Below are positions 1,465-58,683 of a stretch of 64,000 nucleotides of DNA, one piece after another. This DNA comes from Candidatus Aldehydirespirator sp. (GTDB lineage Bacteria > Actinomycetota > Acidimicrobiia > Acidimicrobiales > Aldehydirespiratoraceae), in NCBI GenBank assembly GCA_965220485.1, contig OZ244832.1, forward strand, positions 481,943 through 545,942, in the 5' to 3' direction. The notes below the pieces were generated by a model. That model ran no database searches and was not told the origin of the DNA. It was given only the letters and a program-made list of their open reading frames with translations. Made by a program: the position numbers and the translations under genes. The first letter of the stretch is position 1, and the number at the start of each line of letters is the position of its first letter.

Positions 1465-1968
1465 ATGGCGATCGTCGATCGCGTCCGCGAACTCGTTGCC
1501 CCGATGGCAGAGGCCGCCTCGGTGGATCTGTATGACGTCGAGCATCACGGCGGCACGGTCCGGATCCTCGTCGACACCGACGGTGGCATTGAGCTCGATG
1601 CCATCGCCCGGCTGTCGCGGTCGGTGAGCCGTGCCCTCGATGAGCACGATCTCATACCGGGCCGGTACACGCTGGAGGTCTCGAGCCCCGGCTTGGAGCG
1701 TCCATTGCGCACCCCCGAGCACTTTCGCCGTGCTACCGGATCTGAAGTGAGGGTGAAGACCCTCGCCGGCTTCGACGGGCCGCGCCGGCTGACGGGAACA
1801 TTGGAGGCGGTGGCCGACGACGGCGTCGAGCTGCGCAGCAGCGACGGCGAGTTGTGCCGCATCGCCTTCGAGCAGTTGGCATCGGCCCGCACAGTCTTCG
1901 ATTGGGGACCGGGCCGGCACCAACCAAACCAGCCCCAGGGACGAGATCACAGGGAGGCGAAGCGATGA
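1465..1968 (+). CDS. rimP: Ribosome maturation factor RimP
   Basis: MAIVDRVRELV...YTLEVSSPGLERPL motif. The stop overlaps the nusA ATG (ATGA). Canonical rimP-nusA-infB order. Confidence 0.9.
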   Translation: MAIVDRVRELVAPMAEAASVDLYDVEHHGGTVRILVDTDGGIELDAIARLSRSVSRALDEHDLIPGRYTLEVSSPGLERPLRTPEHFRRATGSEVRVKTLAGFDGPRRLTGTLEAVADDGVELRSSDGELCRIAFEQLASARTVFDWGPGRHQPNQPQGRDHREAKR

Positions 1969-3137
1969 ACGCAGAGATGATGGAGGCGCTCCAGGCGATG
2001 GCGGCCGAGCGGGGGATAACGGTCGATGCGCTGTTTGCGGCCCTGGCCGACGCCTTGGAGTCCGCCTACAAGCGAATGCCCGACGCCAAGGAGTATGCCT
2101 GGGTCACGATTGATCCCTCCACTATGGAGTTCCACGTGCTGGCCCAGGATCTGGATGAGGACGGCAACCCGGTCGGCGAGGAGTACGAGGTGACTCCGGA
2201 CAACTTCGGGCGCATCGCCGCGCAGACTGCCCGCCAGGTCATGACCCAGCGCATCCGCGAGGCGGAGCGGGAGCTGAAGTATGAGGAGTACGCGGGCCGT
2301 GAGGGAGACATCGTCACGGGCATGATCCAGCAGACCGACGCGCGCTACACCCTGCTCGATCTAGGCCGGGTCGAGGCACTGCTGCCCCAGGCAGAGCAGG
2401 TTCCCTACGAACGTCCCGACTCCAACACTCGGCTGAAGGCCTACATCGTCGAGGTTCGCAAGACGGCAAAGGGCCCCCAGATCGTGGTGAGCCGAACCCA
2501 TCCCGGTCTGGTGAAGCGGCTCTTCGAGTTGGAGGTGCCCGAGATCGCTGACGGGATCGTAGAGATCAAGGCATGCGCACGCGAACCGGGCCACCGCACC
2601 AAGATCGCGGTGTTCTCGAACGACCCGAACGTCGATCCGGTGGGTGCGTGCGTGGGGGCTCGGGGAGCGAGGGTGCGCCAGGTCGTCAACGAGTTGCGAG
2701 GCGAGAAGATCGACATCGTGCCGTTCAGCAGCGAGCTCGAGGAGTTCGTGATCAAGGCGTTGTCACCGGCCAGGATCAAGGAGGTCCGCCCCAACGAGCT
2801 GACCGGAGACTGCGACGTGATCGTCCCCGACTACCAGCTGTCGCTCGCCATTGGCAAGGAGGGCCAGAACGCTCGCCTGGCCAGCCGGCTGACCGGCTGG
2901 GGCATCAATATCAAGAGCGAGTCCCAGCTGGCCGAGGAGGCGGCTTACGGCGAGGTGGAATGGGCGGAGGGAGAGTGGATCATCGATCCCGAGACAGGAG
3001 AGCAACTGTGGCGGCCGGCTGACGGCGGCGAGGCGGTCAGCGCTGAGGCGTGGGCCGCAGCCATGGCGCAGGACGAGGTCGAGGACTCCAACTCGGAGGA
3101 AGTCACCCCCGCGGCGGAGCAGGCGGAGAGCAGCTGA
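1965..3137 (+). CDS. nusA: Transcription termination/antitermination factor NusA
   Basis: S1 and KH domain sequence ([10 protein letters not shown]..., [39 protein letters not shown]). ATG at 1965 is coupled to the rimP stop. Confidence 0.95.
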
Positions 3138-3421
3138 GCCCGATCCGCACCTGTATCGGCTGCCGCACCCGCCGCCCGGGTGCGGAGATGCGGCGCGTGG
3201 GCGTGGGCCCGGACGGCGCGCTGGTTGTCGGGCCAGGCCCTGGGCGGGGCGCCTGGCTGTGCCAGGACATGGCCTGCTTCGACTCGGCCGAGCGCCGGCG
3301 AGCCTTCGGACGGGCCTTGCGGGCTGATGTGAAGCCGAGCGAGATCGCTAGGCTTCGGGAAGCGTGGCCGTCGCGCCCGGGGAGCGCTCCCGGGCCGAGT
3401 GGCCGCGCTGGCCGGTCCTGA
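3050..3421 (+). CDS. ylxR: YlxR/DUF448 family RNA-binding protein
   Basis: Conserved IRTCIGCR...GRGAWLC motif in the nusA-infB gap. The only ATG upstream of the motif is at 3050, overlapping the nusA 3' end, so the true start is uncertain (a CTG lies near 3134). Confidence 0.75.
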   Translation: MGRSHGAGRGRGLQLGGSHPRGGAGGEQLSPIRTCIGCRTRRPGAEMRRVGVGPDGALVVGPGPGRGAWLCQDMACFDSAERRRAFGRALRADVKPSEIARLREAWPSRPGSAPGPSGRAGRS

Positions 3422-3433
3422 AGGGGGCAAGCG

Positions 3434-6400
3434 TTGCCAGGCAAGATCCGCGTCCATGAGCTCGCCAAAGAGCTCGGGTTGTCAAATCAGGAGACGCTCG
3501 ATCTTTGCGTCGCGCTCAGCATCGGAGTGAAGTCGCATTCCTCGAGCATTGTCGAGGCCCAGGCTGACCGCGTCCGGCGAAGGGCGGAACGCGACGGCCT
3601 GTTGAAGCCTCCTCCGCCTCCTCCGCCCCCGCCCCCTCCACCCCCGGTCGAAGTCGTGGAGCCGGAGACTAAGAAACCGCAAGCCACCAAGCCGGTCGCC
3701 ACCAAGCCGGTCGCCACCAAGCCGGTCGCCACCAAGCCGGTCGCCACCAAGCCGGTCGCCACCAAGCCGGTCGCCACCAAGCCGGTCGCCACCAAGCCGC
3801 AAGCCACCAAGCCGCAAGCCACCAAGCCGCAAGCCACCAAGCCGCAAGCCACCAAGCCGCAAGCCACCAAGCCGCAAGCCACCAAGCCGCAAGCCACCAA
3901 GCCGCAAGCCACCAAGCCGCAAGCCACCAAGCCGCAAGCCACCAAGCCGCAAGCCACCAAGCCGCAAGCCACCAAGCCGGTCGCGGAGGCTGCCCGTTCC
4001 GAGCCCACCGCCGCCCCTGCGAAGCCCGCCCCTGCGAAGCCCGCCCCTGCGAAGCCCGCCCCTGCGAAGCCCGCCGCTGAGGTGCCCGACTCCCGGATGC
4101 CGCTGCCGGACGCGCCAGACTCGGCGACCGCACCGCCCGTCGCGGCGAGATTGCAGGTGGATGAACCCGCCGCGGCGAAGCCCAAGGTGACGATCTCCTC
4201 CAGCGGTAGCGTCGCTCCGGCCAAAAGAACCACAAGAGACGAGCCCCAGCCGGTGTCGGAGGAGCAGGCGCCGCCGAAGCCGGCAGGCCGAAGAGTGCAG
4301 GCCAGCGCAGCTCCGACCCGCCCCCTAAAAGCCGGAAGCCCGCCGGTGTCACGGTCTGGCAAGCCGATCCCTCCGCCTCCTCCGCCTCGCCGCCTCCGGC
4401 CTCCGGCCCCTCAGGGCGCCCCCGGCCGTGGTGCTGCGGCCGCCCCTGAACGCCGGCCGGCCGGTCCTGGCGCACGCCCGTCGGGCCCCCGGCCTCCCGC
4501 TGATCGACCGGCTGGCCCTCGCCGGGGCGCGCCTTCGGGAGGTCCTCGCTCGCTCGGCGGGGCCCGTCCTGCGATGCCCGGACCTCCGGGCCGGCCTGCG
4601 GGCAGAGGCGCTCCCGGCGGTGCCCAGCGGCGTCCGCCCCGACGCAAGAGCCGCAGGCGCCGCGTGCGTGAGGAACTCCAGCCGATGGATGTCCCGACGT
4701 ACACGCCGCGCCACGCAGCCGTGCCCGAGGGCGTGGTTGTGGTGGAGCGGGCCTCGGCCGCCCAGGACTTCGGCCCCAAGCTCAATCGCACCGCCGCCGA
4801 CGTGGTCCGCTTCCTGATGCAGCACGGCGAGATGGTCACGGCCACGCAGTCGCTCAGTGACGAGATGATGGAACTCTTCGCGGCGGAGATCGGCGCCGAG
4901 ATGCGTCTCGTCGATCCGGGCGAGGAGCAGGAGGCTGAACTCCGCAAGCTCCTTGGGATCGACGGTGACGAGGCCGGCGGCGGAAGCGAAGCCCCTCTAC
5001 GGCCTCCTGTGGTCACCGTCATGGGCCATGTGGACCACGGCAAGACGCTGCTGCTGGACCGTATCCGCAACGCCAACGTGGTTGATGGCGAGGCGGGCGG
5101 GATCACGCAGCACATCGGCGCCTATCAGGTCGAGCGCAATGATCGGACGCTCACATTCATAGACACGCCGGGCCACGAAGCGTTCACCGCCATGCGGGCC
5201 CGGGGAGCAAGCGCCACAGACATCGTGGTGCTGGTCGTGGCCGCCGACGACGGCGTGATGCCCCAGACGATCGAAGCCATCAACCACGCCAAGGCGGCAG
5301 GCGTTCCCATCGTGGTGGCGGTCAACAAGATCGACCGTCCCAACGCGGATCCACAGAGGACGGTCGCCGGAGTGGCCGAGCAGGGGCTGGTTCCGGAGTC
5401 CTGGGGCGGAGAGACGATCTACTGCGAGATTTCGGCACTGACCGGCGAGGGGATCGAGGACCTGCTGGACCAGGTACTGCTGGTAGCTGAGGTCGAGGAT
5501 CTGCGGGCCTCGCCCGAGGGTCGAGCAGGCGGGGTTGTGCTCGAGTCGAACCTCGACATCGGGCGGGGCCCCGTGGCCACCGTGCTGGTGCAGCGGGGCA
5601 CGCTGCGCATAGGCGATCCGGTGGTCGCAGGGGCGTCGTGGGGACGTATCCGGGCTCTGCTCGACGACCGGGGCGAGGGCGTCACCGCGGCTGCTCCGTC
5701 GACCCCGATCCAGGTTCTGGGCTTGTCGGAGGTTGCCATCGCGGGCGACGCCTTCGCGGTGGCCCCCAACGAGAAGGTCGCCGGGCGGGTTGCCGACACC
5801 CGTGAGCACTGGCAGCGCTTGTCGAGCCTGGGCCGCGAGGCTCACGCCCTGTCCGGCGGGGCCAAGCTCGAAGATCTGTTCACCCGGATCCGGCGCGGCG
5901 AGACTGCAACCCTCAACGCGATCGTGAAAGCCGACGTGAATGGCTCGCTCGAAGCGGTCACCGGGAGCCTCCGCAAGCTGGAGACCGGCGATGTCCGCAT
6001 CGCTATCGTGCATCGCGGCGTCGGGGGCATCACCGAGAACGACATCCAGCTCGCATCCGCCTCGAACGCGACCATCATCGGGTTCAACGTTCGGCCCGAC
6101 CGCAAGGCCCGCGAGGCCGCCGATGCCGAGAACGTCGAGATCCGCACCTATGAGATCATCTACAAGCTGCTCGAGGACGTGTCGTCGGCCATGGTCGGGA
6201 TGCTCGCCCCCGACATCGAGGAGATCGTGACCGGCGACGCCGAGGTACGTCAGGTCTTCCGCATCCCCCGGGTCGGGGCGGTGGCAGGCTGCTACGTGCA
6301 GAACGGCACGATCACCCGGGGATCGAAGGTGAGGTTCCTGCGCGACGGGGCGATCATCTGGAAGGGGACCATCACGTCGCTCAAGCGCTTCACCGACGAT

Positions 6401-6523
6401 GTCCGCGAGGTTCACTCCGGCTTTGAGTGCGGCATAGGCCTGAGCAACTTCCAGGACCTCAAGGCGGGCGACATCATCGAGACCTTCGAAGAGCGAGAGG
6501 TGGCCCGAACCCTCGAAGGGTGA
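3434..6523 (+). CDS. infB: Translation initiation factor IF-2 with an expanded low-complexity N-terminal region
   Basis: TTG start. N-terminal IF2_N ([11 protein letters not shown]), GTPase motifs ([17 protein letters not shown]) and the C-terminal IF-2 domain. Confidence 0.95.
3674..3979 (+). repeat. In-frame 15-bp tandem repeat inside infB (~20 units; KPVAT x7 and KPQAT x13)
   Basis: Directly visible AAGCCGGTCGCCACC and AAGCCGCAAGCCACC units. A Pro12 run lies upstream and 4x PAKPA (4014-4075) downstream. Confidence 0.95.
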
Positions 6524-6550
6524 GGGTCCGGCATCCGGCCCGCAACAACC

Positions 6551-6686
6551 GATGACACGACGAACCCGATGACACCGCGGCACCGATGACACGACGAACG
6601 CGATGACACCGCGGCACCGATGACACGACGAACGCGATGACACGACGAACGCGATGACACCGCGGCACCGATGACACGACGAACCC
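6551..6686 (+). repeat. 17-bp tandem array (8 units) between infB and rbfA
   Basis: Units GATGACACGACGAACSC and GATGACACCGCGGCACC alternate. The last unit contains the rbfA ATG. Confidence 0.95.
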
Positions 6687-7066
6687 GACGCTTGCATCCC
6701 GACCCTCGGGCCGGCCATCGCACCGCCCGGGTGGGCGAGCTCATCAGGCGCATAGTCGCCGAGTCCATGGAGCAGCTGGATGACGACCGTCTGGCCATGG
6801 TGTCCGTGACGGGCGTGGACGTGGACCGGGACCTGCACCGAGCCGTTGTGTGGTTCACCTCGCTCGGCGATACCGAAGAGGGCGATGTCGGCATTGCCGA
6901 GGCCTTCGAGGAGCACGCCAGCAGGCTGCGACGCAGCGTTGGGGATCAGACTCGGTTGCGACGCACGCCGGAGTTGGTGTTCCGTCCGGACACTGTGCTG
7001 CGCTCAGCCGAGCGCATCGAGAGGCTCCTCGACGAGATGGCCGGTGACCCGGATCCCGATAGCTGA
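6671..7066 (+). CDS. rbfA: Ribosome-binding factor A
   Basis: RVGELIRRIVAE...DDRLAMVSVTGVDVDRDLHRAVVWF is typical RbfA, in the infB-rbfA-truB order. The start sits inside the tandem array. Confidence 0.85.
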   Translation: MTRRTRRLHPDPRAGHRTARVGELIRRIVAESMEQLDDDRLAMVSVTGVDVDRDLHRAVVWFTSLGDTEEGDVGIAEAFEEHASRLRRSVGDQTRLRRTPELVFRPDTVLRSAERIERLLDEMAGDPDPDS

Positions 7067-7080
7067 TGTCCCTCGGAGCG

Positions 7081-7222
7081 AGCGCGGGTGGGACTCACCT
7101 CCTCGCGGTGCAAATTCGTATTCCCCGCTCTTGTTCGCTGCGCTCACGGGCCGCTCGGGCCACGGCCTCGCTCAGCGCCCCTGCAAGTCCTCGATGACTC
7201 GCCGCCTATCCGCTCGGCCTCT
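7081..7222 (-). repeat. ~140-bp intergenic repeat family, copy 1 (inverted)
   Basis: Contains the core CCCGCTCTTGTTCGCTGCGCTCACGGGCCGCTCGGGCCACGGCCTCGCTCAG and the end CCTATCCGCTCGGCCTCT. Overlaps the truB start. Confidence 0.85.
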
Positions 7223-8102
7223 GGACGGGGTCGCGGTCATCGACAAGCCCGCGGGGTGGACGAGCCACGACGTGGTGGCCAAGGCGAGGGGGGTGTTAGG
7301 CACCCGAAAGGTGGGCCACAGCGGAACGCTCGATCCTGACGCCACCGGGGTGCTGGTGCTCGGCGTGGGCAGGGCCACACGGCTGCTGCGGTATGTCACC
7401 GAGCTTCCCAAGAGCTACGAAGCGGAGATAGTGCTCGGAACCGAGACCGACACCCTCGACTCGGCGGGACGGGTGACGGCGCGCCACGACATGGCCGGGG
7501 TGAGCGAGCAGCAGGCGCGCCAGGCTGCCGCGGCCCTGACTGGCGCCATCCTCCAGGTGCCGCCCATGGTCTCGGCGGTGAAGGTGGGAGGGAGAAGGCT
7601 TCACGCCCTCGCCCGCGCCGGCGTGGAAGTGGAGCGCGAAGCGCGACCGGTCACCGTCTATCGCTTCGACGTCGCCGGTGTGCCCGGCTGCGAGGGTGTG
7701 CTGCGCGCCGTGGTCGACTGCTCGTCGGGCACCTACGTGCGAGCGCTCGCCGCGGATCTGGGCCGGGCGCTCGGCGGAGGCGCCCACCTGCGGATGCTGC
7801 GCCGCACTGCGGTGGGGAGTTTCGGGCTCGCCGGCGCCCGCTCGGTGGAGTCGGCTGAGGTCCTGCCGATGTCTCGGGCCGTCAAGCACCTCGCGGGCGT
7901 GCGGGTGGACCCGATGGTGGCGGCCGAGGTGGCCAATGGTCGGGTGCTGGACCTCGTCCGCCTTGGTGTTGCCGACGCCCTGGAGGGGGGAACTGCGCCC
8001 GGGCCCTGGGCCGTCCACGACTCCGAAGGCGAACTGCTCGCCGTGTACGAGCGGTTCCGCAACGGCGCGAAGCCAACGGTGGTCGTGACGAGCGCGCCGT
8101 AG
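7194..8102 (+). CDS. truB: tRNA pseudouridine-55 synthase TruB
   Basis: VIDKPAGWTSHDVV...GHSGTLDPDATGVLVLGVG catalytic motif. The long ORF from 6846 reads through the repeat and is not credible. Confidence 0.9.
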   Translation: MTRRLSARPLDGVAVIDKPAGWTSHDVVAKARGVLGTRKVGHSGTLDPDATGVLVLGVGRATRLLRYVTELPKSYEAEIVLGTETDTLDSAGRVTARHDMAGVSEQQARQAAAALTGAILQVPPMVSAVKVGGRRLHALARAGVEVEREARPVTVYRFDVAGVPGCEGVLRAVVDCSSGTYVRALAADLGRALGGGAHLRMLRRTAVGSFGLAGARSVESAEVLPMSRAVKHLAGVRVDPMVAAEVANGRVLDLVRLGVADALEGGTAPGPWAVHDSEGELLAVYERFRNGAKPTVVVTSAP

Positions 8103-8234
8103 CTGTAGGGGACGCCGCGCACGGCAGGCGCGTTGGGCCGATGGCGGCAGGTGTGAGGTAGCCAGCGCGCATCGGTAGCCTTCCAGGTACCGGCCCCGGG
8201 CCCGGAATCGTCACTATCCGCGCTGGAGGCGTCT

Positions 8235-9182
8235 GTGGAGCTGCTGCATGATCGGCGCGATCAACTCCCCCCCATGGTGTCTGTCGCGGCTGCGATAGGC
8301 GTTTTTGACGGAGTGCACCTCGGCCACCAGGAGGTGCTGACCCGGGTCCGGCAGACCGCCGAGCGCCTAGGGGCGGCGTCGGCGGTCGTCACGTTCGACA
8401 CCCACCCGGCTTACGTGGTGCGGCCGGAGAACGCGCCGAAGCTGCTGACAACCCTCGAGCAGAAGCTGGAGCTGCTCGAGGCCCAAGGGCTCGACTACGG
8501 CTACGTGATCCAGTTCGACGAGGCTCGCGCCGGCACCAGGCCGGAGGAGTTCGTGGAGCAGGTCTTCCTCGACGCCCTCCACGCCCGGGCCGTGGTGGTG
8601 GGGGAGGACTTCCACTTCGGCAAGGGCCGCACCGGCAACGTCGCCGAACTGCAGCGCCTGGGACACCAGTGGGGTTTCGAGGTGGTCCCTCTCGAGCTCA
8701 TCCGCCACCGCCACGACGCCCGCGAACCGGTGTCGTCCACCGCGGTGCGCCGGGCTCTGGCCGGCGGCGATGTGGCTCGCGCCGCGGCCATGCTCGGGCG
8801 CTACTACGAAGTGCGCGGCACAGTCGTTCCCGGGGACCGGCGGGGGATGGTGGTCGGATTCCCCACCGCCAACGTGCCGGTTCCCAAGTTCATGGCCTGG
8901 CCGGCCGACGCGGTCTATGCGGGGTGGTGCACGCTGCCGGACGGCAGCCGGCGGGGCTGCGCCATCAACATCGGCCGCCGTCCCACGTTCTACGAGCACG
9001 CTCAGCAGTCCCTCTTGGAGGCCCACGTCATCGACTTCGACGGCGACCTGTACGGATGCGAGGTTCGGGTGGAGTTCGTTGACTTTCTGAGGAGCGAGCG
9101 CAAGTTCGAGGGCATGGAACACCTCTCTGCTCAGCTCGCCATCGATGTGGCCGACGCGCGGCAGCGGCTCGGGCTGGCGTAG
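8235..9182 (+). CDS. ribF: Bifunctional riboflavin kinase / FAD synthetase
   Basis: GVFDGVHLGHQ nucleotidyltransferase motif and a C-terminal riboflavin kinase domain (GFPTANV...EAHVIDFDGDLYG). Confidence 0.9.
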   Translation: MELLHDRRDQLPPMVSVAAAIGVFDGVHLGHQEVLTRVRQTAERLGAASAVVTFDTHPAYVVRPENAPKLLTTLEQKLELLEAQGLDYGYVIQFDEARAGTRPEEFVEQVFLDALHARAVVVGEDFHFGKGRTGNVAELQRLGHQWGFEVVPLELIRHRHDAREPVSSTAVRRALAGGDVARAAAMLGRYYEVRGTVVPGDRRGMVVGFPTANVPVPKFMAWPADAVYAGWCTLPDGSRRGCAINIGRRPTFYEHAQQSLLEAHVIDFDGDLYGCEVRVEFVDFLRSERKFEGMEHLSAQLAIDVADARQRLGLA

Positions 9183-47218: not shown

Positions 47219-47296
47219 GGGCCGTTAGCTCAGCCTGGTTAGAGCGCCTGCTCGACACGCAGGAGGTCAGAGGTTCAAATCCCCTACGGCCCACCA
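47219..47296 (+). tRNA. tRNA-Val (anticodon GAC), CCA encoded
   Basis: Acceptor GGGCCGT/ACGGCCC, D-arm GCTC..GAGC, anticodon arm CCTGC-TCGACAC-GCAGG, T-arm AGAGG-TTCAAAT-CCCCT. Confidence 0.9.
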
Positions 47297-48873
47297 ACGT
47301 GTGTGGAAGCTAGCACCGAGCCGTTAAGGGCCACCTTCTCGGTGACCCCTCCAGCTAAAAAACTGTCCTCGGGCATAGGCACGGTGTAGCGCATCAGGGC
47401 GTTGTCGGGCATGACGATGACCTCCTTGACGAAGGACTCGATGAAGGTCCTGCGCTCTGTAAGCTCACTCTCCTTCAGGAACGCGCTCATGTCCTGGGCG
47501 TAGGCGGCGATGGTGTTCACGTCGTCGAGGACATTCCGGCGCTGGGCCAGGGCCGCCCTCGCCTGGTCAGCGGAAAACTCGAGGCGCTCCTGCCGCTCCC
47601 GGTGCTGGCGTATGCGGGGGGTGAAGTCGGCCATCTCCACCTCGGTGGTCTCCACGAGGTTGTAGATCGTATCCAGCCTGCGGCGCACGTCGGCAAGCTC
47701 CTTCTCGATGGTCTGGAGCTTCTTGCGCTGATCTCCGGCCACACCGTCCATCTGCTCGTCCACGACCTTCACCAGGGCGCGGATGTTGCCGTCGGTGAGG
47801 ATGTTGGAGCGAATCTTGGTGACGACCATCTCCTCGAAGCGTCGGGCTGCGAGGCGGGGAGTCTTGCAGGCTTCCTTGCCCTGCTTCATGAGCGACTGGC
47901 AGACGTAGTAGGGGAACTGGCCGCTCTTGGAGTACTGGCCTGTGAGCGCCCGGTTGCAGGTCTTGCACTTGACCAGCCCGCTGAGCAGGAAGGAGCTTCC
48001 GACCCGTCTGGGGTTGACGACCTTGGGGGCGCGGCGGCGCAGCTGCCGGTTGACTCGGCGGAACCGGGTCTTGGAGACGATGGCGGGAAACGCCTTCTCC
48101 ACCCGCACGGGGTCTGCCCCGTCCTTTGCGTTGGCGCCCCAGACCAGAGTCCCCGTGTACGCCTCGTTGGTGAGGACCTTGTGGATGCTGGTCTTACCCC
48201 AGACCTTCCCTGCTGGGCTGGCGATGCCCTCGTCGTTGAGGGTGCGGGTGATGTCCAGCATCCCCTTACCGGCCTCGGACATCGCGAAGATGCGCTCGAC
48301 GATGGGGGACGTGGCGGGGTCGGGTTCCAGGGTGGGGCGCTTCTTGGGTCCGTCCTGGACGTAGAGCTTGCTGAAGCCGTAGGGCGCCTTGCTGCCGACC
48401 CAGAAGCCTCTGGATGCGGCCTCTCTCATTCCCCGCAAGACCTCTTGCGCAAGATTTTCGCTGTAGAACTCGTCCACGCTCTCGATGATGCCCTCAAGCA
48501 ACCTTCCGGTGGCGGTGTCCTCGGCCTGCTCGGTTATGGACACCACCCGGATGACCTTGCGCCGGAGCATGGACTTGAAGGCAACGGCGTGCTCGCGCTT
48601 GCGGGTGAACCTGGAGAACTTCCAGACCAAAATCTCCCGAAACGGGGCGTTGGTCCTGCTGGCCTCGTCGATCATCTTGCGGAACTCGGGGCGGTTGGCG
48701 ATGCGTCCGCTCTCCGCCTCGTCCACGTACTCGCGGGCGACGATGTAGTCGTTCTTTTCGGCGTAGTCCCTGAGCGCCCGCAGCTGTGCGGCCACGGACA
48801 GGTCCACGTCCTGCCGGTCGCTGGACACCCTGGCGTAGAGTGCCACCGGCGTGTAGTCGTGTCGTTCAATCAT
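47284..48873 (-). CDS. Large serine recombinase
   Basis: Resolvase catalytic N-terminus (ALYARVSSDRQD...), a recombinase domain, a Cys-rich zinc-ribbon region (CKTCNRAL...YYVCQS) and a coiled-coil tail. ATG at 48873 with an AGGAGG RBS. Confidence 0.9.
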   Translation of the reverse strand: MIERHDYTPVALYARVSSDRQDVDLSVAAQLRALRDYAEKNDYIVAREYVDEAESGRIANRPEFRKMIDEASRTNAPFREILVWKFSRFTRKREHAVAFKSMLRRKVIRVVSITEQAEDTATGRLLEGIIESVDEFYSENLAQEVLRGMREAASRGFWVGSKAPYGFSKLYVQDGPKKRPTLEPDPATSPIVERIFAMSEAGKGMLDITRTLNDEGIASPAGKVWGKTSIHKVLTNEAYTGTLVWGANAKDGADPVRVEKAFPAIVSKTRFRRVNRQLRRRAPKVVNPRRVGSSFLLSGLVKCKTCNRALTGQYSKSGQFPYYVCQSLMKQGKEACKTPRLAARRFEEMVVTKIRSNILTDGNIRALVKVVDEQMDGVAGDQRKKLQTIEKELADVRRRLDTIYNLVETTEVEMADFTPRIRQHRERQERLEFSADQARAALAQRRNVLDDVNTIAAYAQDMSAFLKESELTERRTFIESFVKEVIVMPDNALMRYTVPMPEDSFLAGGVTEKVALNGSVLASTHVGGP

Positions 48874-49136
48874 CGGTTCCTCCTTCTGTTTCTTGCCGTT
48901 CGATCCTGGTCTCGTCCCACCGGACGCTCCACGTCTTCGGAGGCGATGCCCTGCCCGCGGGCGGGCCGTTGTCCGTACCGTTCGAGGCGTCTCCCCTCCG
49001 CCTCCCGCATGTACAGGCGGAGGGCCTCGCGGACAAGCCCGCTCATGGTGCGGTCCTCCTCCTCCATCAGTTGCCTGACCTGCTCGGCCATCTGCGGGGG
49101 CAGCGAGATGGTGATGACCTCGGTGGTTCTGGGCAT
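48870..49136 (-). CDS. Ribbon-helix-helix (CopG-like) protein
   Basis: VITISLPPQMAEQVRQLMEEEDRTMSGLVREALRLYM. ATGA overlap with the recombinase start. Confidence 0.7.
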   Translation of the reverse strand: MPRTTEVITISLPPQMAEQVRQLMEEEDRTMSGLVREALRLYMREAEGRRLERYGQRPARGQGIASEDVERPVGRDQDRTARNRRRNR

Positions 49137-49280: not shown

Positions 49281-49637
49281 ATGGGGACATTCAAGTGGCC
49301 GCTGCGGATCGCCAGCATGGACGGCCAACGGGTGCGGGAGATTGAGGCGACGGTGGACACCGGAGCCGCCTACACCACGCTGCCGGGCAGCCTGCTGCGC
49401 GAGCTCGGGGTCGAGCCGATGGGGAATCGCCGGTTCTTGCTGGCGGACGGGCGGCGGGTGGACATGGAGTACGGGAGGGCCTGGGCCACCATCAACGGCG
49501 ACAGCGAAGTGACCATCGTGGTCTTCGGAGAGGACGACGCTCCGGCTCTGCTGGGGGCCTACACCCTGGAGGGACTTGCCCTGGCTGTGGACCCGACCTC
49601 GCAGCGTCTCGTCCCCACCCATCTGATCATGTACTAG
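49281..49637 (+). CDS. Retropepsin-like (clan AA) aspartic protease, single-domain
   Basis: 118 aa with the catalytic ATVDTGAAYTTL motif. Confidence 0.7.
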   Translation: MGTFKWPLRIASMDGQRVREIEATVDTGAAYTTLPGSLLRELGVEPMGNRRFLLADGRRVDMEYGRAWATINGDSEVTIVVFGEDDAPALLGAYTLEGLALAVDPTSQRLVPTHLIMY

Positions 49638-54761: not shown

Positions 54762-56641
54762 CTAGGGGGCGGTGAGCACGACGGTCACCGAGTTGGCCGC
54801 CCGGGTGACGGTCACCGTGTAGGTCTGGGTGGTCGTGGTGTCCTCGGCGGTCACCTTGACGGTGACGACGTTGCTGCCCACGTCCAGGCTCACCTGGTGC
54901 CCCTCCGCGCTCGCGTCGGCGTCGGCAGGGGTGATCTCCACCGTGGCGGCGGCATCGGTCTGCTCCGCCGTCACCGTGGTGGACGTCACGCTGTTGTACA
55001 CGGAGGCTGTGTAGGTGGCGGTGGCGGTGGCAAAGTCCGGCGACAGCGTGACGCCGCTCAGGGCCAGCCCGCTCAGGCTGGCGTCGGTCGAAGTCCCCGG
55101 CAGCTGATGATGAAAGAGCTTCTTGTTGCCGATGCCGGTATTCCCCACCCACATGGTCGTTCCATCGGACCATGTGCCCCAATTCCGTGAAGAATTGCGC
55201 GAGCTCAAGTCCAGGTCGGCGTCGCGGCTCCCGCTGCTGATCGTATAGGCGAGGGCCTTGTTTAGGAAGGGATATACCACCCAGATGGTCGTTCCGTCCG
55301 ACCAGACTCCAGCGGGCGAACTGGGGCCCACGCTGAACTCCTTCGCTGTGTCGGGGTTACCGGTGGACAGCGTGTAGGCGTAGAGCTTCTTGTCGCTATC
55401 GTCCCCCACCCAGATGGTCGTGCCGTCCGACCAAACGCCCGTAACCCTGCCGTTGTCGCCCCCCAGCGTGATGTCCTTGCCCGAGTCGCGGGCCCCGGTG
55501 GACAGCGTGTAGGCGTAGAGCTTAGCGTCAGAGACGTCCCCCACCCAGATGGTCGTGCCGTCCGACCAGACGCCGGTAGCATCACCGTTGGCGCTGTCCA
55601 GCGTCATGTCCTTGCCTGAGTCGCGGGCCCCGTTGGACAGCGTGTAGGCGTAGAGCTTGTTGTCGCTATCGTCCACCACCCAGATCGTCGTGCCGTCCGA
55701 CCACACGCCAAGGGGAGACCCGTTCTGGGAGTCGAGGGTGATGTCGACGGGCGTGGACTGCTGCCGCGCCGAATCCGGCGGGTCGTCTTCCCCTTCTTCC
55801 GGCTCCGCCACGCTGAAGCTCGCCCTCGCCGAGGCCATCTCCACGCCGTCGGGCGACGATATGCTCGCTTCCAGGGTGTAGTCGCCCGCCGGACAGCCGG
55901 CGGAGATGGTCCCGGTGCGGGTCTCCGGGTCCTCGTCCACCTGGTACATGTAGCGGTCCACCCCAGGCCGTCGCCCTCGCAGGCGTCGGCGTCAACCACG
56001 TCGGCGCGGAAGATGTAGTCAGTGGTGTCGGTGTCCCAGTCGGACTGCAAGCCGATGAATCCCATGGTGACCGCGATGGCGGTTCCCTGCTCCACGGAGC
56101 TGGAGGGGAAGAGGGCAATCGCCACCAGCGGCGTGGGTTCCGGCGTCGGCTCAGGTGTGGGTTCTGGCGTCGGCTCAGGCGTTGGCGTTGGCGCCGGGGC
56201 CGTCACGGTGAAGCTCGCCCTCGCCGAGGCCAGCTCTACACCGTCGGGCGAGGAGATGCCGGCTTCGAGGGTGTAGTCGCCCGCCGGACAGTCGGCGGAT
56301 ATGGTCCCGGTGCGGACTTCGGGGTCCTCGTCCACCTGGTACATGTAGCGGTCCACGCCCAGGCCGTAGCCATTGGCCCGGTCCTCGCATTCGTCTGCCC
56401 CCACCACGTCGGCCCGGAAGACGTAATCCCTGGTTGCGGTGTCGGAGTCGGACTCCAGGCCGCCGAAGCTCATGGTGACGGTGATGGCCGATCCCTCCTC
56501 CACGGAGGCGGAGGAGAGGCTGACCGCCACCGACGGCGACGCCTGGGCGTGGGCCGGGTAGGGCAACGGCACGCCGGAGAGAAGGACGAGCGCGAAGGCT
56601 CCCAGGGCGGCAAGGACGGCGAAGGACAGTTTGCGTTTCAC
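54762..56641 (-). pseudogene. N-terminal part of the same adhesin-like gene (signal peptide, duplicated module, 6 propeller-like repeats, cadherin-like module); broken by a 1-nt frameshift at 55961-55964
   Basis: ORF 55604-56641 (MKRKLSFAVLAALGAFALVLL...) and ORF 54762-55961 join if one base is added to a G-run. Module 1 reads GLGVDRYMYQVDEDPE and module 2 reads GLGW/VDRYMYQVDEDPE. Confidence 0.75.
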
Positions 56642-56842
56642 GATGCCGGCCTCACTTTCGGCGGCCGCAAGGTGTGGATGGCGGGTAGGGGCGCTGCCCG
56701 GAAGGCAAGGAGAGACCTTCGGGCCTGCGCGCGGGCGCGCAGAAGCAGCCGCTCAGGGCAAGCGGCGATACGGGGGGAGAAGGGCGGTCCGAAAGAAGGA
56801 GCCGGACGGGGGTTTGGGGCTATCTAGATGACGATATTCGTC

Positions 56843-56859
56843 GGGGGGGGGGGGGGGGG
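56843..56859. repeat. Homopolymeric G17 tract ~200 bp upstream of the adhesin start codon
   Basis: Counted directly in the sequence (tcg + 17 g + tag). Confidence 0.9.
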
Positions 56860-57343
56860 TAGAAGGATTGCGCTCGTCGAGGCGCGTCCTCACGACGGCG
56901 GATACCGCCGGTGCGCCTGTGGACGCTGGTGCATTTTGCCGTCTATCGGAAGGCAACTAAATCCCTCTCCATCTATGTGAGGAGCACAACTAACCTACTG
57001 TGCCACCGCAACAATATCTGACAACCCGGCCTTTTGTCAATGTGATCGGCCCTGATTTGCCTACAGGATCACCCGTCGCGTTGCTCCTGCAAGAACGGGA
57101 TGGAGGGCTTTCAAAGTCTGCCTTCTTGTCAATATGCCCGGCCCCGGTTCTCAGAGGGCGGGCACATCGCAGCAGTTGGCCCCGGCATCCTCGACGCCAT
57201 CGGTTTCCCGTCACCCTCCCAAGCACGGGAGCTAGGGACGCTCCGATGGCGACGGGCTGGTTTTGTGTCGGGCTGAAGCACAAGAAGGGCGTATTCGCGG
57301 GCAGGCAGGGGAAGCGACGGAGCGGGAAGGAGGGGGAGACCGG

Positions 57344-57715
57344 CTACTCTCCGGCCTGGATGACGACGCGGCCGTCGGTCTCTACGTCGATGCTCAGGTT
57401 GTGGCGGTCCAGCAACCGCATCCCCACGAGGGGGGTGGTGTCTGCGACGTCGGCCTCTATGTATACCGGCTGGCCGTCCCAGAGCACGGCAACGTCGTGG
57501 ACATCGAATGTTGCCTCGCTGCCGTCGGCAAGGGTCGCACGGCTGGTGCCTCGTAAGTCCAATCCCAACTCCGTGACCAACACCGGAGTCACGGTCAGAA
57601 ATCCGGTGAAGCCGGTGTCTATAACGGCTTCGATATCGCTTGTCTGCCCCGACGGGCCTTGCACTGCAAGTCTTACGATGGGCTCGTAGGCGGCGTTCAC
57701 TACCCCTTCGATCAC
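57344..57715 (-). CDS. Retropepsin-like (clan AA) aspartic protease, single-domain
   Basis: 123 aa with the catalytic AVIDTGFTGFLTV motif. Overlaps the upstream ORF by 4 nt. Confidence 0.75.
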   Translation of the reverse strand: MIEGVVNAAYEPIVRLAVQGPSGQTSDIEAVIDTGFTGFLTVTPVLVTELGLDLRGTSRATLADGSEATFDVHDVAVLWDGQPVYIEADVADTTPLVGMRLLDRHNLSIDVETDGRVVIQAGE

Positions 57716-58044
57716 TCGGCTCTCCGCAGGGGACGCCCCCCAAAGTGATGCAGCGCCCGATACCCGACCCGGAGCAGCCAGACGTCAATAGCGTCCGGGC
57801 GTTGTGTCCGCAGACGATCCGTCGCAGCAATCACGTTGTCGCCAATCGCCCAACTTCCGCTGTCGACGTCGATGGCGACTACCTCTCCGTGGTGGTCGGC
57901 TTCAACCTGGGAGCGGATGTCCCGCTCGTAGAGTTCGTCGCCCAGGCGGGCGATCTCGTCCCGCGGTCGGGTTGGGAGCCTTCTGCTCCCCGCTTCTTGT
58001 GTGGGCGCCGGGGTGTCTGCGTCTCTCATGCGTCCCCCTTCCAT
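57712..58044 (-). CDS. Small partner protein of the aspartic protease (DUF5678-like by recollection)
   Basis: HHGEVVAIDVDSGSWAIGDNVIAATDRLRTQRP pattern. A stronger RBS (AAGGGGGA) precedes the internal ATG at 58029. Confidence 0.55.
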   Translation of the reverse strand: MEGGRMRDADTPAPTQEAGSRRLPTRPRDEIARLGDELYERDIRSQVEADHHGEVVAIDVDSGSWAIGDNVIAATDRLRTQRPDAIDVWLLRVGYRALHHFGGRPLRRAE

Positions 58045-58384
58045 AGGCGTTCTTCCTACACCGCAATTCTACCATCTTGCGGAAGTGCGGGACAACGAGA
58101 AAGGCCGCGCACAGGGGCGGACGGGCCGACCAGCTATGACTTATACTATTGGCCTACAGGAGCTTACAGACTGCCGAGCCACATCTCGAACACGGTGCCA
58201 TCTACCGTCCACGTAGGCCCACCGCATTGGCTCCCAGGGTTTTGGCTGTTCGACTCCCAGAGTTTCGTGGTTGAGGCTGCAATGGGCTGCCGCGTGGGGG
58301 ATCGAGGGGTTTGTGGCCCCGGTTCGACGGGGTCGTGAAGCGCCGCGCTGCGGGGGTGCGCCTTCGGAGTTGTCGACGGGCGCG

Positions 58385-58576: not shown

Positions 58577-58683
58577 CTAGGAGACTGCTGAGTAATGCCG
58601 ATTTCGGCCAACCCACAAGCCTCTGACCTGGGGTTTTATGATCACGAAACTAGCAATTTGTGACTTACTCAGCAGTCTCCTAG
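58577..58683. mobile_element. 107-bp MITE, variant X (TIR CTAGGAGACTGCTGAGTAA)
   Basis: Perfect 19-bp terminal inverted repeats, bounded by CTAG. It shares the internal CTGACCTGGGGTTTT string with the other MITEs. Confidence 0.85.

Follow-up and report, generated by a model that had tools for sequence, protein, structure and literature searches.

In the 64,000-nt stretch of contig OZ244832.1 from Candidatus Aldehydirespirator sp. analysed here (positions 481,943 to 545,942; hereafter the window), two overlapping genes encode a small retropepsin-like aspartic protease and, directly upstream of it, a partner protein of a previously unnamed family. The pair forms a mobile cassette. Partners without protease are common in related loci, while intact proteases without partner were never seen. 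Comparative genomics gives good support to a toxin-antitoxin-like interpretation, because the protease is not kept without its partner, the partner appears harmless alone and the unit acts as selfish mobile DNA. We put the chance that the pair is indeed such a module, with the partner restraining the protease, at about even. The preliminary description of this DNA had already compared the pair with toxin-antitoxin modules, and in genome comparisons its size, coupling, patchiness, multi-copy state and one-sided decay do resemble theirs.

The linkage of the two genes was followed in three independent samples, which agree. The first contains 80 partner-centred loci from species-representative genomes, all of them Chloroflexota (Dehalococcoidia and Caldilineaceae) and many of them sponge metagenome bins. 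The second contains 80 protease-centred loci from Joint Genome Institute metagenomes with 45–77% identity and is much more diverse. The third is a six-frame census of 28 Chloroflexota genomes. A full protease lies directly downstream of the partner in 59 of the 80 loci of the first sample, and 57 of these 59 show a 4-nt overlap; the protease is truncated or frameshifted in 12 loci (one of them only by a contig end) and absent in 9. The partner is found directly upstream of the protease in all 76 loci of the second sample that have enough upstream sequence, with the 4-nt overlap in 65. All 92 strong protease hits of the census, 86 of them intact and full-length, have a partner hit directly upstream. 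The partner is thus co-conserved with the protease in both protease-based comparisons, and the refuting case named in the preliminary description, a partner that is not co-conserved, did not arise. The same genomes give 119 strong partner hits; 87 are followed by a full protease, 14 by a broken one and 18 by none, and 17 of these 18 are intact.

The decay of the pair is strongly asymmetric. Intact partners without an intact protease amount to 26–27% (21/80 in the first sample and 31/118 in the census), whereas intact proteases without a partner were absent (0/76 in the second sample and 0/86 in the census). The Fisher exact p value for this asymmetry is 2e-7 in the loci samples and 8e-9 in the census. 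Orphan partners retain remnants of the protease N-terminus just downstream, indicating that the protease was lost secondarily and the partner was kept intact.

These counts bear on a second reading, housekeeping-type regulated proteolysis, in which the partner would be an obligate cofactor, adaptor, chaperone or substrate of a non-toxic protease with a physiological or stress role, and the mobility would be incidental. The strict need of the protease for its partner fits an obligate complex equally well. No antitoxin-like DNA-binding domain was detected in the partner, its disordered tails in the AlphaFold2 model could be cleavage substrates, and characterised bacterial retropepsin-like enzymes such as RimB and RloA act in regulation or stress rather than as toxins (PMC12239564). 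However, an obligate complex predicts that the loss of either gene is tolerated equally, and only partner orphans are common. Patchiness within one genus, location on plasmids, 14–18 copies per genome and diverged tandem arrays would also be unusual for a physiological function. We consider this reading possible but on the unlikely side.

The orphans also bear on a reversal of roles, with a toxic partner and a protease that serves as an antitoxin by degrading it. Enzymatic antitoxins exist in other toxin-antitoxin types, and the partner's tails could be attacked by the protease. However, the 28 genomes hold 18 strong partner hits without protease (17 intact) and 14 with a broken one, and 21 of the 80 partner-centred loci lack an intact protease as well. 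These orphan partners are well conserved and would be lethal if the partner were the toxin. Gene order and coupling likewise favour an excess of partner, not of protease, and we find reversed roles very improbable.

The limits of the cassette are discrete. In blastn comparison with 170 loci, the first homologous DNA is found 20–195 nt before the partner start, at positions between 58050 and 58224, and the homology runs out in nearly all loci at about 57342, the protease stop. Clustering of flanking open reading frames (ORFs) over 80 loci gave no third conserved gene. With such limits and no recurring flanking gene, the pair moves as one piece of about 0.8 kb that brings its own promoter. Within the genus, 8 of 18 other species carry the cassette; beyond it, none of 12 further families of the order and none of 120 genomes sampled from the class gave a copy. 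Despite this patchiness, copies in Dehalococcoidia and Caldilineaceae, which belong to different classes, are 70–90% identical, which argues for horizontal transfer. The two genes are also neighbours on nine cyanobacterial plasmids, with 31–38% identity. One of them, pCC7120alpha of Nostoc sp. PCC 7120, has two copies with the 4-nt overlap, annotated as 'hypothetical protein' and 'clan AA aspartic protease'; the partner proteins there are WP_010999914.1 and WP_044523651.1. One of its pairs (locus L175, 3648-5761) stands beside ParDE and the nuclease/inhibitor pair NucA/NuiA, in a cluster of effector-plus-immunity pairs. Occurrence on plasmids and in a strain-specific chromosomal region, together with 2251 partner clusters, agrees with the earlier proposal that such two-gene cassettes are widespread and unannotated on mobile or accessory DNA.

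The genome of the window itself contains three intact pairs and one partner pseudogene. The pseudogene is an orphan with one in-frame TAG (G000:C1:56169-56462, L003), and a 66-aa fragment of a DTGF-type protease is found elsewhere (G000:C1:2025918-2026070, L013); both are decayed remains of further cassettes.

The retroviral-protease-like fold and the position of the window copy in a recombinase-bearing accessory region could suggest a maturation enzyme of an integrated element or virus-like particle, acting as retroviral proteases do. The cassette occurs, however, in dozens of unrelated contexts that share no capsid, recombinase or other conserved neighbour, and is absent from the phage collections IMG/VR and INPHARED. 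By the neighbourhood data this explanation is close to refuted, and we give it hardly any credit.

A single genome of a sponge-type symbiont can carry as many as 14 proteases and 18 partners. In one tandem array (L177, G124:C1:866500-877500, positions 1761-9006), eight complete head-to-tail pairs and two protease remnants occupy 7.3 kb. The proteases of this array are 49–73% identical and the partners 62–93%, and the first 21 residues of the partners (MMDAKMPAAAQSPRPTAPTRP) are almost identical. The promoter and partner N-terminus are homogenised, while the proteases diverge more than the partners, which suggests that gene conversion acts on the 5' ends while the remainder diversifies.

Such expansion and divergence fit a role in abortive infection against phages or plasmids, where the partner would be a sensor or guard that releases the protease on meeting an invader protein, and the diverged copies would be a recognition repertoire. 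This role would use the same restraint architecture; it overlaps with the toxin-antitoxin-like reading in mechanism and differs only in biological role. The stronger divergence of proteases than of partners behind homogenised 5' ends in the eight-pair array and the copy-number expansion in sponge-type symbionts speak for it, and some loci adjoin restriction-modification-like, OLD/AAA-like and toxin-antitoxin genes. On the other hand, PADLOC models are unmatched and no consistent defence-island neighbours appear over 80 loci. We rate an abortive-infection role as fairly improbable. A more elaborate form, which we regard as distinctly improbable, is a protease-based immune module. Here the partner would be a guard or decoy that keeps the protease inactive, and a specific invader protein would set the protease free by displacing or destroying this guard. 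The tandem arrays of diverged pairs in sponge-type symbionts, with eight pairs in 7.3 kb and as many as 18 partners in a genome, would form a diversified recognition repertoire, and the fold of the partner would be new among protein inhibitors of clan AA proteases.

The protease of the window matches the NCBIfam model TIGR03698 ('clan AA aspartic protease') with 65 bits against a cut-off of 57.35 over model positions 2-104 of 107, and a genome-wide search agrees. Its AlphaFold2 model (predicted local distance difference test, pLDDT, 77) has a predicted single-lobe, retropepsin-like fold. Foldseek matches this model with the proteases of xenotropic murine leukemia virus-related virus (XMRV), human T-cell leukemia virus 1 (HTLV-1) and equine infectious anemia virus (EIAV), with Rickettsia APRc and with the RVP domain of Ddi1 (E 3.5e-5, probability 1.00, template-modelling score 0.5–0.6); PDB entries 5c9b and 9g58 are among the bacterial retropepsins matched. 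The family score and the fold prediction both uphold the assignment to TIGR03698-type clan AA proteases made in the preliminary description. We collected 1612 protease relatives, almost all of 123 aa. Together with the TIGR03698 score and 1320 close relatives of the partner, they make the two ORFs far more than chance. The second signature L96-V97-G98 is present in the window protease. Of 130 paired proteases, 127 keep DTG[F/Y], and G98 is invariant, which points to selection that keeps the protease catalytically active. Since each chain has single-lobe size and one DTG, we infer a homodimeric, proteolytic enzyme. The protein is strongly acidic (isoelectric point 4.1) and has no signal peptide.

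The partner family is large, and a profile search expanded it to the 2251 clusters, defined at 50% identity. For the window partner, searches of Pfam, NCBIfam and PADLOC gave nothing up to E = 10, and none of 50 diverse family members matched in Pfam; database names of its relatives are 'hypothetical protein' or evidently spurious. In the AlphaFold2 model, residues 21-95 form a confident core (pLDDT >90) with alpha-beta-beta-alpha-beta topology, in which a long helix is followed by a beta-hairpin, a second helix and a strand. The proline-rich N-terminus and the C-terminal tail are predicted to be disordered, and there is no signal peptide. Foldseek gave no significant match for this model in the PDB (best E 0.63) or among the predicted viral structures of BFVD (best E 0.4). 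The best hit of the partner profile against PDB sequences is chymotrypsin inhibitor 2, a non-significant one with E 1.2. Five relatives of about 175–225 aa (P0001, P0241, P0242, P0245 and P0247) contain two tandem partner domains and are natural fused dimers, a hint that suggests a dimeric partner for a dimeric protease.

The preliminary description had suggested a DUF5678-like partner, and this identity is not supported. DUF5678 (PF18929) gives no hidden Markov model hit on the partner even at E 10, the hhalign probability against the DUF5678 domain is 0.8%, and 1 of 50 partner relatives matched, with E 0.15. DUF5678 was not found in a whole-genome search of the window's genome, and a search seeded with the DUF5678 half of protein P0031 found nothing. 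In P0031 (L024, 3734-4315) a DUF5678 gene runs in frame and with no stop into a partner gene, giving a 193-aa ORF. This in-frame run-on of neighbouring genes is the sole link found between DUF5678 and the partner family, and may be the source of that suggestion.

The features of the cassette in the window are listed in Table 1. Both ORFs, the motif quoted for the partner, the IDTGF of the protease and the 4-nt overlap are as first described. The TGA stop of the partner shares bases with the GTG start of the protease as GTGA. The length of 105–110 aa first given for the partner needs narrowing: the ORF is real, and the 110-aa start is unlikely. The first ATG lies within the leader and is absent from other loci in 67 aligned upstream regions. 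Since partner homologs are nearly all 104–105 aa and a conserved Shine-Dalgarno sequence precedes the second ATG, the real start is most likely this second ATG, at 58029.

Table 1. Features of the protease-partner cassette and the lone protease, in window coordinates
Feature	Position	Strand	Remarks
Protease gene, single-domain clan AA (retropepsin-like), TIGR03698	57344..57715	minus	123 aa, GTG start; from ORF list
Partner gene, unnamed family	57712..58029	minus	105 aa; alternative upstream ATG 58044 would give 110 aa
GTGA stop/start overlap, translational coupling	57712..57715	minus	read from sequence; kept in most pairs
Catalytic motif codons D33-T34-G35-F36	57608..57619	minus	part of IDTGF, protease residues 32-36
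-35-like hexamer TTGTCC, predicted cassette promoter	58090..58095	minus	consensus scan, sequence checked
Extended -10 element TGGTAGAAT	58066..58074	minus	consensus scan and aligned homologous loci
Imperfect palindrome GGTGT-N7-ACGCC between -10 and Shine-Dalgarno	58046..58062	minus	candidate operator or 5'-terminal mRNA hairpin
Shine-Dalgarno GGGGGA of partner gene	58033..58038	minus	conserved block AAAGGGGGACGCATG 5' of second ATG, aligned loci
Mobile two-gene cassette, extent	57342..58224	minus	set by where DNA homology to other loci stops
Second, lone clan AA protease (VDTGA)	49281..49637	plus	118 aa; Pfam Asp_protease_2

One conserved promoter lies upstream of both genes, and a bicistronic message is read from the sequence. 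A consensus scan gives TTGTCC-18 nt-TAGAAT with TG preceding the -10 hexamer. In the upstream alignment, TGnTAGAAT stands 36–39 nt from the ATG with constant spacing in most of the 67 homologous loci, and the leader order is extended -10 TGGTAGAAT, 36–39 nt, AAAGGGGGACGC-ATG. An inverted repeat of approximately GYGTA-N4-6-TACGCC occupies the equivalent position in many loci and is perfect in several (L017, L019 and L029). The palindrome at the transcript start of the window copy could be an operator, a hint compatible with autoregulation.

In the toxin-antitoxin-like reading, the cassette would be an autonomous, horizontally mobile module whose effector is a cytoplasmic homodimeric retropepsin-like aspartic protease, and the upstream 105-aa protein would be its dedicated neutraliser. 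The sequence shows one promoter for a bicistronic message and a GTGA overlap that couples translation of the protease to prior translation of the partner, so that no protease is made without at least an equal amount of partner. The alpha/beta core of the partner may bind the protease near the flap and block substrate access or dimerisation. Events that might deplete or displace the partner include loss of the DNA, stress proteolysis that attacks its disordered tails, and the arrival of an invading element. Once free, the protease would cleave cellular proteins and arrest growth, and as a result the carrying DNA would be stabilised or an infection aborted. The top inter-protein covariation agrees with the proposed site; it connects partner residues 60-61, 81-85 and 93 of the beta-sheet with residues 54-58 of the protease, which adjoin the predicted flap. 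It scores 0.72, compared with at most 0.26 in pairing shuffles, and as interface evidence this is suggestive only, since the shuffle control leaves shared phylogeny in and the effective number of sequences (Neff) is about 70.

Besides that caveat, several points weigh against the toxin-antitoxin-like reading. Toxicity, binding, inhibition and cleavage are all steps that we infer. Polarity may contribute to the asymmetry of decay: loss of the promoter-proximal partner would silence the protease, which then decays. The census also contains a few partial protease remnants without a listed partner. No DNA-binding domain is recognised in the partner by Pfam, NCBIfam or fold search, and searches of Pfam, NCBIfam and the PDB show it to be unlike any known antitoxin in sequence or fold. 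Neither protein matches a toxin or antitoxin family in Pfam, NCBIfam or PADLOC, and PADLOC-DB gives no hit at E up to 1 for the partner, the protease or a second protease of the window. IMG/VR and INPHARED contain no relatives of either protein. Our literature searches gave no toxin-antitoxin system with an aspartic protease toxin. Evidence of expression is none; four public runs that contain the locus have even coverage over genes and spacers, and as their kind is unstated they are uninformative for transcription.

Compared with type II toxin-antitoxin systems (VapBC, ParDE, epsilon/zeta), the cassette shares two small co-directional genes with a 4-nt overlap and the protective gene first, its own promoter with a palindrome, and a patchy, multi-copy occurrence on plasmids and islands. 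In both cases orphan 'antitoxins' are common and lone 'toxins' are absent. It differs in its putative toxin, since our searches gave no aspartic protease among described toxins, and in its partner, in which no DNA-binding domain of the ribbon-helix-helix (RHH), helix-turn-helix (HTH), AbrB or Phd type is recognised and which resembles no antitoxin family. The module thus appears to behave like a type II system and fits no described family, with neither a match to toxin or antitoxin models nor a recognisable DNA-binding domain. A protease with a dedicated small co-operonic protector is also known from the staphopain-staphostatin pairs, where the inhibitor shields the producer's cytoplasm from its own secreted cysteine protease and its gene lies downstream. 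Here, in contrast, signal peptides are absent, the partner gene lies upstream and the folds are unrelated.

Among retropepsin-like proteins, the closest group is the TIGR03698/COG5550 single-domain clan AA peptidases (AF_0612 family), of which a 2009 survey says that 'little is known' (PMC2642776). The protease is the member of the pair that scores with this family, and it shares the length of about 120 aa and the DTGF motif; the obligate upstream partner and the cassette behaviour are missing from the family descriptions found. RimB/RimK and RloA-C of Pseudomonas and APRc of Rickettsia are similar in having a stand-alone bacterial retropepsin fold that is operon-linked to functional partners. 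The partner of RimB is an ATP-grasp ligase, RloA is a secreted enzyme with effects on envelope physiology, and APRc is a membrane-anchored, autotransporter-like enzyme (PMC12239564). Unlike our pair, none of them has this partner, coupling or distribution, and their locations and roles are different (PMC12239564). Saci_1895 is a retropepsin-like protein of about 100 aa with a single domain, linked to type III CRISPR loci in Sulfolobales (PMC3973734). It is similar in size and in its defence-related neighbourhood, but its neighbours are cas genes and not the partner family. The control genome of Sulfolobus acidocaldarius also gave a TIGR03698 hit. No published description of the protease-partner pair was found in full-text literature searches.

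The window copy of the cassette belongs to a strain-specific region, variable in all 11 congeners examined, that follows a tRNA-Val gene. The left boundary is the 3' end of the tRNA-Val gene (47294-47305), where homology to the 11 congeners (L181-L191) stops. The next 1.5 kb is different in each congener and has no match in the window. The difference in each congener makes the tRNA-Val gene a hotspot for different insertions, and the lack of matches leaves the right edge of the region undefined. No direct repeat of the tRNA end was found that could mark attL/attR of a tRNA-Val element. A second island of the same genome (L179, G000:C1:3679000-3694500) holds two more pairs, a near-identical lone VDTGA protease, a 100% identical copy of a 107-bp miniature inverted-repeat transposable element (MITE; window 58577-58683) and segments 79–90% identical to window 56601-57073. 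These segments show that the DNA downstream of the window's cassette is itself repeated.

The second protease of the window was first described as a paralog-like protease of the same element beside an RHH/recombinase pair. The gene and its position are confirmed; its description as paralog-like and its link with the two-gene module are not supported. It scores 25.8 bits with Pfam Asp_protease_2 (cut-off 24.3) and 44 bits with TIGR03698, below the cut-off of 57.35, and is 39% identical to the paired protease over 44 residues. Its subfamily has seven sub-cut-off TIGR03698 hits in this genome, and its five full-length copies share no conserved neighbour gene. On this basis we classify it as a distant, partnerless clan AA member, separate from the two-gene module. 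It is divergently oriented to the RHH gene (48870-49136). The TGA stop of the RHH gene overlaps, as ATGA, an internal ATG of the long recombinase ORF at 48873, which is preceded by GGAGGA. The serine recombinase is probably a 529-aa protein that starts at 48873 rather than 49179 and is translationally coupled to the RHH gene.

For more than 15 years, single-domain prokaryotic retropepsin-like proteases (COG5550/TIGR03698) have been recognised as candidate relatives of retroviral proteases, with no role assigned to them. A large branch of the TIGR03698 proteases is now tied to an obligate, previously unnamed partner family, and the pair shows population-genomic behaviour typical of toxin-antitoxin modules. 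If the toxin-antitoxin-like reading is true, aspartic proteases would become a toxin class, the partner would be a new proteinaceous inhibitor fold for clan AA proteases, and a heavily expanded gene family of sponge-associated Chloroflexota would be explained. It proposes a testable function for a protease family that had none, and Nostoc sp. PCC 7120, with two copies on its alpha plasmid, offers a model organism.

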